NCBI RefSeq assembly: GCF_000175255.2
Contig: NC_017262.1
Location: 390,001-422,000 of the forward strand
Direction of reading: 5' to 3'
Source of the DNA: Zymomonas mobilis subsp. mobilis ATCC 10988
GTDB lineage: Bacteria > Pseudomonadota > Alphaproteobacteria > Sphingomonadales > Sphingomonadaceae
DNA: 32,000 bases
Below, one piece after another: positions 12,295-30,304 of this stretch. Both the position numbers and the translations under genes were made by a program. How positions within the stretch are numbered: the stretch's first letter is position 1; each line of letters starts with the position of its first letter. Below the pieces are notes generated by a model. The model made no database searches. It saw nothing but the letters and a program-made list of their open reading frames with translations, and had not been told where the DNA came from.

Positions 12295-13563
12295 TTAGGC
12301 TGCGCCAGGACTAGCGTCTTTCTCTTTTTGAGCAAAAACCCGCACCGGTTCTTTTTTGCCTTCAGCCACATCTTTATCAACGATGATTTCGGACACGCCT
12401 TCTAATGAAGGCAGTTCGAACATCGTATCAAGCAAGATACCTTCCAAAATAGAACGTAGACCGCGAGCCCCAGTCTTCCGTTCAATACCTTTTTTAGCAA
12501 TGGCTGCTAAAGCATCTTCAGTAAATTCGAGTTTGGCATCTTCCAGCTCAAACAACTTCTGATACTGTTTAACCAAAGCATTTTTAGGTTCGGTCAGAAT
12601 ACGTACCAGCGCGCTCTGATCAAGATCCTCTAGCGTTGCCAGAACAGGCAAACGACCTACAAATTCAGGAATTAGACCAAATTTCAACAGATCTTCTGGT
12701 TCACATTCCTGCAAAATTTCACCCGTCCGGCGTTCGTCAGGCGCAGCGACATGTGCACCGAAACCGATAGATTTCCCTTCGAGGCGGTCTGCAATAATCC
12801 GGTCGAGTCCAGCGAAAGCCCCACCACAAATAAAGAGGATATTCGTCGTATCAACCTGCAAGAATTCCTGCTGAGGATGCTTTCTGCCCCCCTGTGGTGG
12901 GACAGATGCCGTGGTGCCTTCCATCAGCTTTAGTAATGCTTGCTGGACGCCTTCGCCCGATACATCGCGCGTAATAGAAGGGTTGTCCGACTTTCTGGTG
13001 ATCTTGTCTATTTCATCAATATAGACAATGCCCCTTTGAGCACGTTCTACATTATAATCACTTGCCTGTAATAATTTCAGGATAATGTTTTCGACATCTT
13101 CACCGACATAACCAGCCTCGGTCAAAGTCGTTGCATCGGCCATCGTAAAGGGCACATCAAAGGTGCGCGCCAAAGTCTCTGCCAGAAGCGTTTTACCGCA
13201 TCCAGTCGGCCCAATCAAAAGAATATTAGATTTTGCTAGCTCGACATCAGCATCTTTGCCGCCGTGATTCAATCGCTTGTAATGGTTATGTACCGCAACA
13301 GAAAGCACCCGCTTGGCTTTACTCTGTCCGATAACATATTGGTCAAGAATCGTACAGATTTCCTGTGGCGTCGGCACGCTGCCGTCACCTTTATGCAAAG
13401 CGCCTCTGGTTTCCTCGCGAATGATGTCGTTACATAATTCAACACATTCATCGCAGATAAACACTGTCGGCCCCGCGATAAGCTTACGGACTTCGTGCTG
13501 CGATTTGCCGCAGAAAGAACAGTAAAGCGTGCTTTTGGAATCGCTGCCGCTCAGTTTGGTCAT
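12295..13563 (-). CDS. clpX: ATP-dependent Clp protease ATP-binding subunit ClpX
   Basis: It has the N-terminal zinc finger (CSFCGKS…CDEC), Walker [18 protein letters not shown] and the full-length ClpX sequence pattern. Confidence 0.97.
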
Positions 13564-18189: not shown

Positions 18190-18274
18190 TAAAAATGGTT
18201 GGGGCGGCAGGATTCGAACCTGCGCATGACGGGATCAAAACCCGTTGCCTTACCGCTTGGCTACGCCCCAATAG
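18190..18274. repeat. Direct repeat copy 1 (85 bp, contains tRNA-Gln)
   Basis: Base-for-base identical to 19991..20075 (TAAAAATGG…CGCCCCAATAG). A further 4 of 5 flanking bases also match. Confidence 0.95.
18196..18270 (-). tRNA. tRNA-Gln (anticodon UUG), CCA encoded
   Basis: The minus strand reads TGGGGCGTAGCCAAGCGGTAAGGCAACGGGTTTTGATCCCGTCATGCGCAGGTTCGAATCCTGCCGCCCCAACCA. The anticodon stem-loop is ACGGG-TTTTGAT-CCCGT. Confidence 0.92.
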
Positions 18275-18454: not shown

Positions 18455-19993
18455 ATGGAATCCCCCTCTTATAAAAATTTAATCAAAGCCGAGGATGCAC
18501 AGAAAAAAGCTGGAAAACGGCTTCTATCTTCTGAATGGTATCCTGGATTTCATGTAACGCCTTTAACTGGTTGGATGAATGACCCCAACGGGCTGATTTT
18601 TTTCAAGGGGGAATACCATCTTTTTTATCAATACTATCCTTTTGCACCTGTCTGGGGGCCGATGCATTGGGGACATGCGAAAAGCCGTGATTTAGTTCAT
18701 TGGGAAACACTCCCTGTTGCCCTTGCTCCAGGGGATTCATTTGATCGCGACGGCTGTTTCTCAGGATGCGCTGTTGATAATAATGGCGTTTTGACTCTGA
18801 TCTATACGGGGCATATCGTTTTATCTAACGATAGCCCTGATGCCATTCGTGAAGTGCAGTGTATGGCGACAAGCATAGACGGCATCCATTTTCAAAAAGA
18901 AGGCATCGTCCTTGAAAAAGCACCCATGCCACAGGTCGCCCATTTCAGAGACCCTCGCGTTTGGAAGGAGAATGACCACTGGTTTATGGTGGTGGGCTAT
19001 CGAACAGATGATAAGAAACATCAAGGAATCGGACATGTCGCTCTATACAGAAGCGAAAATCTAAAAGACTGGATTTTTGTCAAAACACTGCTGGGTGATA
19101 ATTCTCAATTACCGCTGGGAAAACGGGCTTTTATGTGGGAATGTCCTGATTTCTTCTCGTTAGGCAATCGTTCTGTTTTGATGTTTTCTCCACAAGGCTT
19201 GAAGGCAAGCGGTTACAAAAACCGGAATCTATTTCAAAACGGCTATATTCTTGGAAAATGGCAAGCACCTCAATTTACGCCGGAAACATCCTTCCAAGAA
19301 CTAGACTATGGTCATGATTTCTATGCAGCACAACGTTTTGAAGCTAAAGATGGTCGTCAAATATTAATTGCATGGTTTGATATGTGGGAAAATCAAAAAC
19401 CCAGCCAACGAGATGGATGGGCTGGCTGTATGACGTTGCCCCGCAAGCTTGATTTAATTGATAATAAAATTGTGATGACGCCTGTTAGAGAAATGGAGAT
19501 TTTACGACAATCGGAAAAAATTGAATCTGTCGTAACGCTTTCGGATGCCGAGCATCCCTTTACGATGGACTCTCCCCTGCAAGAAATAGAGCTGATCTTT
19601 GACTTGGAAAAAAGCAATGCTTATCAAGCTGGTTTGGCTTTGCGCTGTAATGGCAAAGGGCAAGAAACGCTTCTTTATATCGATAGAAGCCAGAATCGTA
19701 TCATTCTTGACCGAAATCGCTCGGGGCAAAATGTAAAAGGGATTAGAAGCTGTCCGCTTCCGAACACCTCCAAAGTCAGACTGCATATATTCCTTGACCG
19801 ATCATCTATAGAAATTTTTGTCGGCGATGATCAGACCCAAGGCCTCTACAGCATAAGTAGTCGAATATTCCCCGATAAGGACAGCCTTAAAGGCCGTTTA
19901 TTCGCTATCGAAGGCTATGCCGTTTTTGATTCTTTTAAGAGATGGACATTACAGGATGCTAATCTAGCCGCTTTTTCAAGCGATGCCTGTTAA
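18455..19993 (+). CDS. sacA: Intracellular sucrase / beta-fructofuranosidase (GH32 invertase)
   Basis: It has the GH32 motifs WMNDPNG, FRDP and WECPD and no signal peptide. I recognise the 512-aa sequence (MESPSYKNLIKAEDAQKK…) as the Zymomonas mobilis intracellular sucrase SacA/InvA. Confidence 0.93.
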   Translation: MESPSYKNLIKAEDAQKKAGKRLLSSEWYPGFHVTPLTGWMNDPNGLIFFKGEYHLFYQYYPFAPVWGPMHWGHAKSRDLVHWETLPVALAPGDSFDRDGCFSGCAVDNNGVLTLIYTGHIVLSNDSPDAIREVQCMATSIDGIHFQKEGIVLEKAPMPQVAHFRDPRVWKENDHWFMVVGYRTDDKKHQGIGHVALYRSENLKDWIFVKTLLGDNSQLPLGKRAFMWECPDFFSLGNRSVLMFSPQGLKASGYKNRNLFQNGYILGKWQAPQFTPETSFQELDYGHDFYAAQRFEAKDGRQILIAWFDMWENQKPSQRDGWAGCMTLPRKLDLIDNKIVMTPVREMEILRQSEKIESVVTLSDAEHPFTMDSPLQEIELIFDLEKSNAYQAGLALRCNGKGQETLLYIDRSQNRIILDRNRSGQNVKGIRSCPLPNTSKVRLHIFLDRSSIEIFVGDDQTQGLYSISSRIFPDKDSLKGRLFAIEGYAVFDSFKRWTLQDANLAAFSSDAC

Positions 19994-20075
19994 AAATGGT
20001 TGGGGCGGCAGGATTCGAACCTGCGCATGACGGGATCAAAACCCGTTGCCTTACCGCTTGGCTACGCCCCAATAG
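19991..20075. repeat. Direct repeat copy 2 (85 bp, contains tRNA-Gln)
   Basis: Identical to 18190..18274. The sacA stop codon TAA (19991-19993) forms the first three bases of the repeat. Confidence 0.95.
19997..20071 (-). tRNA. tRNA-Gln (anticodon UUG), second identical copy
   Basis: Same 75-nt sequence as 18196..18270. Confidence 0.92.
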
Positions 20076-28247: not shown

Positions 28248-28255
28248 GATTCTAT

Positions 28256-28290
28256 AACGGCACAGAGAACTGTGCCGTTATTCAATTTTG
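28256..28290 (+). terminator. Rho-independent terminator after the GST gene
   Basis: AACGGCACAG-AGAA-CTGTGCCGTT is a 10-bp perfect stem, followed by ATTCAATTTT. Confidence 0.6.
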
Positions 28291-28466
28291 TGAGTCGATT
28301 ACAAATATTTTAAAAATCAAAAATTTTATTATATAAATTTAAAATTCAATAAATATTGATATATTTTTATAATACAACTCCAACAAAAATAACATTTTAC
28401 CATAACCAGCTTTCCTACAGAGAGTCTTGTTGATATTTTTAGAACATAACAAGAACAAAAAGGAAT

Positions 28467-28799
28467 GTGGTTATGAGGAATTCTGAAAAGGCAATGGTAT
28501 CCCCTGATATGCTGCCTGCACTGACCCGAAATGCAGTTGCATCGACGGGATACCCGCCTGTTAAAAAGCATCTTGGATATGGCGATACCGTCAAAAAACA
28601 ACAATTATCGCATCAAAAAATAGAAAGCTCTGCGGCTAACTATTTAAGGCGCAAGGGTTATGTGCCGGTATGCCATGCCAATATTGTGGACATCACTTTT
28701 CCTCGAGATGTCTGGCTTGTCGGACAACATGTCATATCAACGGAAGATATGCTTGAAATGGCGAACATCCACGGATTCCGATCAGAAATCGTTCAATAA
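28467..28799 (+). CDS. Hypothetical 110-aa protein heading the lysis islet (possibly the gene described as zliE)
   Basis: The ORF has a GTG start 6 nt after AAGGA, with an ATG two codons in. It has no signal peptide or TM helix and no motif I can assign. It is preceded by about 175 bp of extremely AT-rich DNA. Confidence 0.45.
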   Translation: MVMRNSEKAMVSPDMLPALTRNAVASTGYPPVKKHLGYGDTVKKQQLSHQKIESSAANYLRRKGYVPVCHANIVDITFPRDVWLVGQHVISTEDMLEMANIHGFRSEIVQ

Positions 28800-28936
28800 A
28801 TCGAAGCTCAAGGGTGACCATCGATAGTGACAAGTTTCCTATTTTAAAATGGTCGCCCATATTCATTTTCAGGAAATTCTAAAATGATCGGAATCCGTCT
28901 TTCTCGACTGTTATCAGGGAATAGGAAGACTATCTC

Positions 28937-29491
28937 ATGATGACAGCCGCCGATTTTATCCGTTGGTATATCCAGCATTGGGAAGGTCAATTGTCTCTTG
29001 ATCCCAAGGATCGAGGCAATTGGTGGAATGGTCAATTAGTAGGCTCAAAATATGGCATCACCGCTGCGGCGCTTTCCAGCGAACGCCAGACATCTCATAT
29101 CACGGCTTTTGATATAGCCGGACTGACAGAAGATGAAGCTGTTAGCATAGGCCTCGCACAATATTACCATGCTTCCGGCTTGGATAAATTGCCTTGGAAT
29201 CATGTCACTGCTTCGGTGTTAGACAAGGCATGGGGATCAGGCCCCAAAACAGCCATTCGGCTCTTACAAGGTCTTATTGGTGTATCGCCTGACGGGGTTG
29301 TCGGGGATAAAACCATTCAAGCCTATCGGGATTGGATAGAGAAAAATGGCGAAGCACAAGCCGCTATTATATGGGCAAAAACACGGGAAAATTTTGATTT
29401 ATCCCTTCACCAGCCTCGATTTTTGAAAGGATGGAATAATCGGACAACCAGTTATTTACCCGATGGTCAATGGTGGTCTGCCATGACCTAA
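28937..29491 (+). CDS. zliS: GH108-family N-acetylmuramidase (phage endolysin type) with C-terminal PG_binding_3-like domain; 'secretion activator' ZliS-type protein
   Basis: The N-terminus HWEGQLSLDPKDRGNWWNGQLVGSKYGIT aligns to the GH108 signature HEGGY..DP.D.GG.T..GIT. The C-terminus PDGVVGDKTIQAY matches the VDG.IG..T peptidoglycan-binding repeat. AGGAAG lies 8 nt before the ATG. The name is from my recollection that the founding 'secretion activator' member of GH108/DUF847 is Z. mobilis ZliS. Confidence 0.8.
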   Translation: MMTAADFIRWYIQHWEGQLSLDPKDRGNWWNGQLVGSKYGITAAALSSERQTSHITAFDIAGLTEDEAVSIGLAQYYHASGLDKLPWNHVTASVLDKAWGSGPKTAIRLLQGLIGVSPDGVVGDKTIQAYRDWIEKNGEAQAAIIWAKTRENFDLSLHQPRFLKGWNNRTTSYLPDGQWWSAMT

Positions 29492-29525
29492 AAAGAACAA
29501 AACCTGAACAAAATGGAGAAAAACA

Positions 29526-29747
29526 ATGAGGCATTTTTATACAGTCATAGGCTGGATAAAAGGCCGTTTGAAAGAACGCACAACATGGGGAGGTCTGCTT
29601 ATCGTCGTTGGCACATTGCTGGGACATGACATGGGATGGATTAACAATATGGCGCAAGGGATCGGGATGGCGACCTTTGGCGGAACCCTGATTTCTTTCA
29701 GTAATCAGGATAATAAAAATATCCAGAATGAAGGCTGCCATGATTGA
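29526..29747 (+). CDS. Small two-TM membrane protein, putative holin
   Basis: 73 aa with two hydrophobic segments (TWGGLLIVVGTLLG; MAQGIGMATFGGTLISF) and a polar, weakly acidic C-terminal tail. It sits between the endolysin and the spanins. Confidence 0.5.
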   Translation: MRHFYTVIGWIKGRLKERTTWGGLLIVVGTLLGHDMGWINNMAQGIGMATFGGTLISFSNQDNKNIQNEGCHD

Positions 29748-30168
29748 GCTACCTTTAATTTGGTCTTTTATAAAAGGCTCATGGAAACCAATTTTGGCGA
29801 TATCGGCCATTTTTCTTGCGATCGGGCTGATCCATCACGATGGCTATCGGCGCGGTAAACGGCATGAACAGGCAAAATATGAAAAAGCTCTGGAAACCGC
29901 CCAGAAACAAGCCAATCTTGCCCAACAACAAATAGACGATTTGACCCGTCAGATGGGTCTTATTCAGCAAGAACAAGGCGATAAAATAAGGAATATTCAA
30001 GAAAATGCACAAAAAATGGCAACCCAGCCGGTATATAATACTGTCTGTGGCAATGCTGATGCTTCCCGCTTGCTCGACGACGCGCGTCGTGCAGCCAATG
30101 CCGGACTTGCCAGCCAATCTGATGACACCCCCGCCCCCGCTACCCGCCTTTCCTCACAATCCCGATAA
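29740..30168 (+). CDS. Inner-membrane spanin component (Rz-like i-spanin)
   Basis: It has an N-terminal TM anchor (WKPILAISAIFLAIGLI) followed by a Gln/Ala/Glu-rich coiled coil (EQAKYEKALETAQKQANLAQQQIDDLTRQMGLIQQEQ). ATG 29740 is preceded by GAAGG and overlaps the upstream stop. The ORF track start at 29728 is in the same frame. Confidence 0.6.
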   Translation: MIELPLIWSFIKGSWKPILAISAIFLAIGLIHHDGYRRGKRHEQAKYEKALETAQKQANLAQQQIDDLTRQMGLIQQEQGDKIRNIQENAQKMATQPVYNTVCGNADASRLLDDARRAANAGLASQSDDTPAPATRLSSQSR

Positions 30169-30298
30169 TAGGATGACCGCTGCCGAATGGCTTCAGGGTA
30201 GTATCAATCTTTATGAAACAGCCGGTTCTATTCGATTGCAATTATTAGCTTTACAGGCAGCGGTGCAGACCGAAAACAAAACGAACGAACCTAAATAG
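30005..30298 (+). CDS. Outer-membrane lipoprotein spanin component (Rz1-like o-spanin)
   Basis: It starts in the +1 frame inside the 3' end of the i-spanin gene and extends 130 nt beyond it. The signal peptide has a lipobox-like LPAC (MHKKWQPSRYIILSVAMLMLPAC|S). The mature part is short and proline-rich (PMPDLPANLMTPPPPLPAFP). Confidence 0.6.
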   Translation: MHKKWQPSRYIILSVAMLMLPACSTTRVVQPMPDLPANLMTPPPPLPAFPHNPDNRMTAAEWLQGSINLYETAGSIRLQLLALQAAVQTENKTNEPK

Positions 30299-30304
30299 TC
30301 AAAG

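Follow-up and report, generated by a model that had tools for sequence, protein, structure and literature searches.

The 32-kb window analysed here, that is, the whole 32,000-nt stretch of the Zymomonas mobilis subsp. mobilis ATCC 10988 chromosome (NC_017262.1, positions 390,001 to 422,000), carries five same-strand (+) open reading frames (ORFs) flanked upstream by a GST gene and downstream by a convergent S58 peptidase gene. Gene content, phage homology, vertical inheritance and purifying selection show that this cassette is a domesticated phage lysis module which forms a stable chromosomal operon of Zymomonas. Its function is rather probably that of a lysis module resembling those of type 10 secretion systems (T10SSs) or gene transfer agents (GTAs), which would release the sucrases of its host, and perhaps phage-like particles, by lysis. 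The features of the locus are listed below; coordinates are positions in the window unless a contig label (L001-L014) is given.

28254..28281 (+): intrinsic terminator hairpin of the GST gene (12-bp stem with 6 GC pairs, then a run of T), which bounds the islet on the left
28291..28466 (+): presumed promoter/leader of zliE, AT-rich, 176 nt, 20.5% GC
28473 (ATG)..28799, alternative GTG start at 28467 (+): zliE (ZMO0934, ORF1), 108 aa (110 aa from the GTG)
28771..28898 (+): structured zliE-zliS spacer, with an inverted repeat and an RNA fold
28937..29491 (+): zliS (ZMO0932, ORF2), 184 aa, GH108 muramidase with a C-terminal PG_binding_3 domain
29526..29747 (+): ZMO0931 (ORF3), candidate class II-like holin, 73 aa, two-segment membrane protein
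29740..30168, alternative ATG at 29728 (+): ZMO0930 (ORF4), Rz-like i-spanin, 142 aa (146 aa from 29728)
30005..30298 (+): Rz1-like o-spanin (ORF5), 97 aa in the +1 frame, whose last 41 codons are ZMO0929

Outside Zymomonas, the nearest relatives of ZliS (54-61% identity) are found in metagenomic phage contigs. One of them, contig L010, carries the phage genes Mu_F, Baseplate_J and Phage_Wedge1 together with an endolysin 61% identical to ZliS, and its lysis genes run from GH108 through a 105-aa gene and a 78-aa ZMO0931 homologue to Rz and an overlapped Rz1 with the lipobox LSAC; the order in contig L009 is the same. Identities of the L009 and L010 proteins to those of Zymomonas are 61-67% for GH108, 46-48% for the holin-like protein, 27-33% for Rz and 37-43% for Rz1. 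Compared with the L010 module, the Zymomonas cassette is without the 105-aa gene and has zliE added upstream. The order shared with L010 and L009 indicates that the Zymomonas cassette is a phage lysis module taken over en bloc, and the phage-type lysis set proposed in a first-pass annotation of this stretch is matched gene for gene by the lysis module of a phage contig.

The proteins of the window are identical to those of strains such as CP4/ATCC 10988. Strains of subsp. mobilis, the divergent strain AN0101 and subsp. pomaceae all share the GST-cassette-S58 peptidase arrangement, with SecA, ArgJ, MlaD and further housekeeping genes outside the two flanking genes. The ratio of nonsynonymous to synonymous substitution rates (dN/dS) of the five cassette genes is 0.05-0.30 at a dS of about 0.6-2.7, compared with 0.05-0.11 for the flanking genes; against pomaceae, where dS reaches 2.7, synonymous substitution is close to saturated, and all five frames are intact in the three lineages. 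The comparison of synteny suggested in the first-pass annotation therefore places the five genes in one constant position between housekeeping genes in all three Zymomonas lineages, not at a prophage edge, and this constancy, together with purifying selection, indicates that the cassette is domesticated and not decaying.

Other statements of the first-pass annotation about the locus were also re-examined. Five genes in one direction between the GST terminator and the S58 peptidase gene were confirmed along with the length and composition of the leader, as was the 6-nt gap between the ORF5 stop and the stop codon of the convergent peptidase gene; the core of the GST terminator hairpin is kept in all three lineages. 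The islet does begin with very AT-rich DNA, but this composition does not point to a foreign origin: elsewhere in the window, intergenic DNA is equally AT-rich (22-27% GC at 24.9 kb and 27.4 kb) and the GC content of the cassette (45.4%) equals that of the window (45.2%), so that the islet bears no mark of recent arrival. Integrase, terminase, capsid and tail genes are absent from the window, as had been noted, and also from 10 kb on each side in complete genomes. No convincing direct repeats or att-like repeats were found around the islet, and no tRNA gene lies closer to it than about 8 kb. A defence-system reading of the cassette was ruled out by zero PADLOC matches. As side observations, strain-specific insertions in the neighbourhood leave the cassette untouched: in the AN0101 lineage an RVT_1 reverse-transcriptase gene and a 131-aa gene lie between mlaD and a cold-shock-domain gene (L007:12162-13058 and L008:5385-6281), and one subsp. 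mobilis strain has an insertion sequence (DDE_Tnp_1) upstream (L001:3384-4180).

The database name of ORF2 is 'Secretion activator protein' (Q57000/BAA04473) and that of ORF1 is 'Expression activator protein' (Q56999), in agreement with the naming of zliS and zliE in the first-pass annotation. ZliS scores 59.4 bits against Pfam Glyco_hydro_108 (cut-off 21.2) and 29.7 bits against PG_binding_3 (cut-off 24.6), and it matches the PHROG endolysin family phrog_315 at 5.9e-26. The misleading 'secretion activator' label on GH108 proteins goes back to ZliS. The catalytic E16 of the WEG motif is invariant across 12 homologues, phage-borne ones included, and the dN/dS of zliS is 0.08. The N-terminus is hydrophilic, with no 15-residue window before residue 109 above a hydropathy of 1.0, and it has neither a signal peptide nor a signal-anchor-release (SAR) segment. 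Since ZliS is without an export signal, a holin would be needed, and since it is without SAR, ZMO0931 would need to form holes which pass a folded 20-kDa enzyme. A pinholin/SAR-endolysin system was considered and rejected, as ZliS has no N-terminal signal-anchor-release segment. No ZliS paralogue was found on any Zymomonas plasmid, which argues that the plasmid prophage does not share the cassette. Among its phage relatives, an endolysin 54% identical to ZliS occurs on a GC-rich phage contig (L011/L012), where a gene for an Acb2/Tad1-hairpin protein (an anti-CBASS/Thoeris sponge) is located two genes downstream of the endolysin (L011:10899-11129, same in L012).

Within the cassette, purifying selection is strongest on ZMO0931, the candidate holin (dN/dS 0.05-0.07). 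Its product has a basic N-terminus and an acidic C-terminus, and between them lie two segments, at about residues 21-39 and 43-58, which are rich in glycine and weakly hydrophobic. ZMO0931 is a near-orphan: an exhaustive profile search of 1.84 billion representative proteins gave five relatives, one of which led to contig L009, and a word-based search returned Zymomonas proteins only. In both L009 and L010, homologues of ZMO0931 stand directly upstream of Rz and Rz1, and this constant slot directly before the spanin genes best supports its candidacy as a holin. The profile searches proposed at the outset had a mixed outcome, with clear matches for ZliS and Rz, weak ones for Rz1 and no family for ZMO0931 or ORF1. 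Another relative from the ZMO0931 profile search, P0058 (160 aa), has three tandem copies of an RLKERTTW motif plus two-segment unit as in ZMO0931, and its PHROG matches are phrog_8494, of unknown function (3e-10), and a holin family (0.002); these tandem copies suggest that the RLKERTTW plus two-segment unit might be a modular membrane hairpin.

The spanin pair is more readily recognised. ZMO0930 matches several Rz-like spanin PHROGs, including phrog_1152 (2.9e-10) and phrog_312 (3.6e-7), and scores 21.2 bits against Pfam DUF2514, which is below the cut-off of 26. It possesses an N-terminal transmembrane helix, where hydropathy peaks at 2.6 (residues 21-35, counted in the 146-aa form), and a periplasmic domain of the coiled-coil type, and its start overlaps the ZMO0931 stop by 8 nt; a tblastn search with Rz against the phage collection gave no match. 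The 97-aa Rz1 ORF lies in the +1 frame inside ZMO0930, with an overlap of 164 nt, and extends 130 nt beyond its end. Its product has the lipoprotein signal MLMLPA/CSTT, in which the lipobox is L-P-A-C and position +2 is Ser; it contains 13 prolines, its mature part is proline-rich, and it matches PHROG spanins weakly (0.004 and 0.018). The ORF and its lipobox are intact in 3/3 lineages, and overlapped Rz1 homologues with a lipobox are present in two unrelated contigs, L009 and L010. Inside the Rz/Rz1 overlap dS is depressed in both frames (0.19-0.28, compared with 1.2-1.5 outside), as expected of dual coding, and the non-overlapping part of Rz1 has a dN/dS of 0.09. In addition, ZMO0929 has been detected by mass spectrometry (PMC7428164). 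Intactness in three lineages, the dual-coding signature, the overlapped homologues in two contigs and the detection of ZMO0929 together argue that the 97-aa Rz1 is a real gene. Public records call its last 41 codons only, and the full 97-aa protein is absent from 15 billion predicted proteins; ZMO0929 is thus misannotated and should be corrected to the tail of a 97-aa lipoprotein o-spanin. The doubt as to whether the small ORFs are real is thereby settled in their favour, as they are conserved in three lineages and both spanins are translated according to mass spectrometry.

The cargo expected of such a module is the pair of sucrases SacB and SacC. According to papers citing Kondo et al. (1994), zliE and zliS stimulate levansucrase/invertase production and secretion. 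Over their N-terminal 50 residues, SacB and SacC reach a maximum 10-residue hydropathy of 0.76 and 0.51, respectively, and show no signal-like segment. The sacB region was located with a SacB probe whose only validation is its match to a Zymomonas contig (98% identity across 423 residues), where sacC and then lon follow.

Published omics show that ZliE, ZliS, Rz and the Rz1 frame are translated and that the cassette is co-regulated with sacB/sacC. In four transcriptome studies, zliE, zliS and/or ZMO0930 change together with sacB/sacC; in one of the four, ZMO0929-0934 track both sacB/sacC and ZMO0378-0400, a phage structural cluster described below, across temperature contrasts; and in one study ZMO0929-0932 behave as an operon which is ethanol-repressed in exponential phase and induced in stationary phase. 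In the proteome of cells on sucrose compared with glucose, Rz (+4.15 log2), ZliE (+2.34), SacB (+3.9) and SacC (+3.9) are raised and the genes flanking the cassette are unchanged, while ZMO0929 is raised by +3.4 log2 in the extracellular fraction (PMC7428164). Cells adapted to cellobiose and sucrose have an extracellular fraction in which cytoplasmic and inner-membrane proteins (SecY, FtsA, RecN, rRNA methyltransferases) are enriched, as are plasmid-encoded proteins (PMC7428164, supplementary file 6), a composition that fits lysis or vesiculation better than selective secretion. Moreover, sucrose-adapted cells release a heterologous beta-glucosidase by a mechanism which was left open (PMC7428164).

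The other member of this regulon lies directly beyond sacB-sacC-lon-ZMO0377, about 560 kb from the cassette as judged from the AN0101 contig:

L014:16346-20684 and L013:12957-17325: start of the phage structural cluster, corresponding to ZMO0378-0400 in ZM4

Sequence analysis of the cluster covers its first four genes, and ZMO0381-0400 enter through annotation names and expression data. The first four genes encode a small terminase (TerS, 7e-44), a large terminase (TerL, 3e-47), a 743-aa portal (4e-107) and a 99-aa protein (ORF99), and among the later genes the annotation names one for the major head protein and one for a tail-fibre protein with an S74 domain. The four genes are syntenic in two lineages with a dN/dS of 0.03-0.09 at a dS of 0.9-1.6, a constraint which equals that on SacB and Lon and is unlike that of ordinary prophages. 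The portal and terminase are of the P22/F116 type, the large terminase being Terminase_3-type, and related portals in IMG/VR are 51% identical at most. On sucrose, the portal (+4.1 log2), the major head protein (+3.0) and the tail-fibre protein (+3.6) are raised within a cluster range of 2-4, and lon, ZMO0377 and ZMO0401 are not raised (PMC7428164); the word 'phage' is absent from the main text of that proteome paper. The cluster may be a GTA-like or otherwise domesticated particle. Because the regulon holds this structural cluster, the cassette probably also releases phage-like particles, and the co-induction with a cluster beside sacBC suggests that particle release may be its primary or additional job. 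The description of the cassette as an orphan, given in the first-pass annotation, stands for its position and fails for its regulation, and the cassette is probably not an orphan by function. A palindrome, GTAAATTCTG..TTAATAGAATTTAC, is located at the start of terS (L014:16325-16350, L013 about 12980-13005) and has been conserved between two lineages; a function as an operator or a role in packaging is conceivable.

A T10SS has been defined as a holin/endolysin/spanin cluster outside a phage whose transcriptionally coupled cargo is released by lysis of the expressing cells. The Zymomonas cluster lies outside a prophage, published omics couple it transcriptionally to its cargo, and the cargo is without a signal segment. 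For this system we infer a working holin, lysis itself and subpopulation behaviour. Once conditions are inducing (sucrose, 30 C, stationary phase), expression of the cassette would set in, probably in a fraction of the cells; the holin would open the inner membrane, ZliS would then reach and cut the peptidoglycan, and the spanin would disrupt the outer membrane. Cytoplasmic contents would thereby be let out, among them the signal-less SacB and SacC of the same regulon, and phage-like particles would probably be released as well, in the manner of unlinked GTA lysis genes. The earlier proposal that 'secretion' here may be regulated lysis accordingly gains in fit from the signal-less sucrases, the co-regulation and the cytoplasmic proteins found outside, but it loses in novelty: since T10SSs are already established, the cassette would be a further member and not a new principle. 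No paper linking zliS or ZMO0929-0932 to holins, spanins or T10SS was found in a literature search which did not cover subscription journals.

The best comparison is offered by Serratia marcescens ChiWXYZ (SmaLC) and Yersinia entomophaga YenLC, both of which release their cargo by lysis of expressing cells. Like these, the Zymomonas cassette is an operon of (candidate) holin, endolysin, i-spanin and o-spanin outside a prophage and is coupled to a signal-less, cytoplasm-folded cargo. In contrast to them, it has a GH108 endolysin, an endolysin-first order and a candidate holin of a near-orphan family, its cargo is encoded about 560 kb away and not adjacent, a phage structural cluster belongs to its regulon, and its regulator-like gene zliE is without a homologue outside the genus. 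The endolysin ChiX of Serratia is an L-Ala-D-Glu endopeptidase. For Zymomonas, a dependence of export on the cassette is presumed, and the cytoplasmic proteins of the extracellular proteome are no more than suggestive of it.

Several points weigh against release of the sucrases by a holin-driven lysis module. The functional literature on zliE and zliS is, as represented in later papers, second-hand and of the gain-of-function kind only. In Komagataeibacter, zliS was co-expressed with the Zymomonas sucrase as a 'secretion-activating factor', and as no holin accompanied it there, this use would require a holin-independent effect. The ZliS protein changes by +0.75 log2 on sucrose, which is not significant (PMC7428164). 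A general response of phage genes might account for the omics co-regulation, and the co-induction with structural and plasmid prophage genes allows that sucrase release is a mere by-product; moreover, the cargo genes sacB/sacC are not adjacent to the cassette. As for ZMO0931, it matches no family, and hence no holin family, in Pfam, PHROG or NCBIfam, its two segments are weakly hydrophobic (Kyte-Doolittle 1.1-1.6), and its C-terminus is acidic where typical holins are basic; it is a holin candidate by its position, size, topology and conservation only.

Among the alternatives, the most durable is that the cassette chiefly provides lysis for a phage-like element, be it a GTA-like particle or an old prophage, which was domesticated or split and whose structural genes are ZMO0378-0400; sucrase release would then be a side effect or a later co-option and zliE a former late-gene activator in the lambdoid Q position. 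This is possible, although clearly less probable than the T10SS- or GTA-like reading. It draws on the presence of TerS, TerL and the 743-aa portal directly after sacB-sacC-lon-ZMO0377, on the synteny of four structural genes in two lineages under as much constraint as SacB and Lon, on the co-regulation of the whole cluster with the cassette at both RNA and protein levels while flanking genes do not follow, and on a weak score of ZliS to the NCBIfam 'holin-associated N-acetylmuramidase' model. A delta-oxyR strain, in which ZMO0932 rises together with plasmid prophage genes, also speaks for it. A further pointer is the pattern CCTAC-N(0-8)-CTTGTTG, which occurs once in the window (28414-28432, upstream of zliE) and, among 106 fetched loci, otherwise only upstream of terS (L013:12960-12973); it gives no more than a hint of a shared operator, as the pattern is post hoc and was derived from the same two sequences that it matches. 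On the other hand, the lack of lysis genes of its own in the cluster is judged from annotation names only, four genes having been read, and no homologous lysis cassette lies beside related portals in IMG/VR contigs. The Mu-like L010 with its baseplate, set against the P22/F116-type portal and terminase, leaves a common origin of the two loci unsupported, and no report of particles was found in the literature searched.

Two known arrangements bear on this question. In Rhodobacter capsulatus, the GTA endolysin/holin genes rcc00555/556 are unlinked from the domesticated, vertically inherited structural cluster and co-regulated with it, and the producing subpopulation lyses; the module of this GTA (RcGTA) is HK97-like. 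The Zymomonas cluster differs from it in its P22/F116-like portal and Terminase_3-type terminase, the cassette differs in the presence of spanins, ZliS scores 41 bits against the NCBIfam GTA-type muramidase model (cut-off 240), and particle production and DNA packaging are hypothetical in Zymomonas. The lambda S-R-Rz/Rz1 genes follow the logic presumed for the cassette, that of a holin, a cytoplasmic endolysin and a two-component spanin, with the o-spanin gene in the +1 frame of the i-spanin gene, and likewise have a regulator-like gene just upstream (zliE being in the Q position). Unlike in lambda, Rz1 of Zymomonas is overlapped and extends past the end of Rz and is not embedded, and unlike phage cassettes in general, the Zymomonas cassette lies outside a phage genome and is fixed and conserved in a bacterial genus. 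A bolder scenario, to be regarded as speculative and somewhat doubtful, would be a sucrose-triggered altruistic lysis in which one regulon makes SacB/SacC, a domesticated P22/F116-like particle (possibly a new kind of GTA or a tailocin-like element) and the unlinked lysis cassette, with ZliE as the descendant of a phage late-gene activator driving all three; sugar availability would then govern the release of both public goods and phage-like particles.

It is unlikely that ZliS acts without lysis, as in TtsA and in the original ChiX models, by a local remodelling of peptidoglycan which lets periplasmic sucrases out while holin and spanins only gate or assist. Such a role would agree with the service of zliS alone as a 'secretion-activating factor' in another host, with the fairly constant ZliS protein level and with the fact that T10SSs were first described as non-lytic. 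However, SacB and SacC have no signal for reaching the periplasm, a full spanin pair is under selection and strongly induced, SecY, FtsA and RecN appear in the extracellular fraction, and the archetypal Serratia and Yersinia systems were shown to be lytic on re-examination. TtsA of Salmonella Typhi is a phage-endolysin-type muramidase outside a prophage which promotes typhoid toxin export; it has no holin or spanins, and the toxin reaches the periplasm by Sec. ZliS, unlike TtsA, comes with a holin-like protein and a spanin set, and its cargo is without a signal. The typhoid toxin has also been listed among holin/endolysin-mediated exports. Finally, a functionless prophage remnant, whose expression would be a general stress or growth-phase response common to phage-derived DNA, is close to refuted: the cassette does track plasmid and chromosomal phage genes and neither att sites nor an integrase are left, but five intact frames in three near-saturated lineages (dN/dS 0.05-0.30), conserved promoter blocks, an overlapped frame kept with its dual-coding signature and a fully ameliorated GC content all oppose it.

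The release of sucrases by a T10SS- or GTA-like lysis module would provide a testable mechanism for a 30-year-old puzzle, namely the export of levansucrase and invertase without signal peptides and the real role of ZliS. If true, Zymomonas would have an alphaproteobacterial, sugar-regulated GH108 T10SS in a non-pathogen, where the others belong mainly to enterobacterial pathogens. The cassette probably also explains the 'cellular remodelling' behind the release of heterologous glycosidases by sucrose-adapted cells, and in industrial Z. mobilis chassis it might be tuned for protein release or deleted against lysis. The conserved, sucrose-induced phage particle cluster appears to have gone unexamined so far.

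The first gene of the cassette, zliE (dN/dS 0.19), is a Zymomonas speciality. Homologues of ZliE were found only within Zymomonas and none in the phage contigs, and no family matched it in Pfam, PHROG, NCBIfam or PADLOC. Its AlphaFold2 model is poor (pLDDT 60), and in BFVD and PDB no Foldseek match fell below E = 0.3. The N-terminal 45 aa are variable and probably disordered, and the C-terminal 60 aa are conserved. ZliE would act as an activator, as its database name has it.

The stretch upstream of zliE (28291-28466) may function as a promoter and leader. It contains two conserved blocks, CTTTCCTACA at about 28410-28419 and TTGATATTTTTAGAACATAACAAGAACAA at about 28430-28458, which are identical or nearly so in subsp. 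mobilis, AN0101 and subsp. pomaceae despite saturated synonymous sites, and one promoter-like site at 28338-28365. For a known RNA in the leader, Rfam gave a noise-level CrcZ match only (21.5 bits, cut-off 95). The conserved leader block has no match in L014 (the sacB/terS region), and occurrences of CTTTCCTACA are at chance level. A k-mer screen for shared upstream motifs linked only the upstream regions of zliE and ZMO0931, where a short AAGAACAAAA motif, kept in AN0101, stands shortly before the two start codons (28444-28460 and 29486-29513). A 29-nt direct repeat (28361-28389 and 28433-28461) was also observed inside the leader.

The zliE-zliS spacer (28771-28898) contains a 14-nt perfect inverted repeat around a GC-rich hairpin, followed by a T-rich run, and the RNA of 28760-28940 folds with -53 kcal/mol (z = -3.5). 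The hairpin is a possible terminator or attenuator of zliE, which would fit the report of ZMO0934 as a separate transcription unit; its function is uncertain because the spacer is poorly conserved across lineages.

Elsewhere in the window, about 8.5 kb upstream of the cassette, the intracellular sucrase gene sacA (ZMO0942), which encodes a 512-aa GH32 protein (18455-19993), is bracketed by two duplicated tRNA-Gln(ttg) genes at 18196-18270 and 19997-20071.

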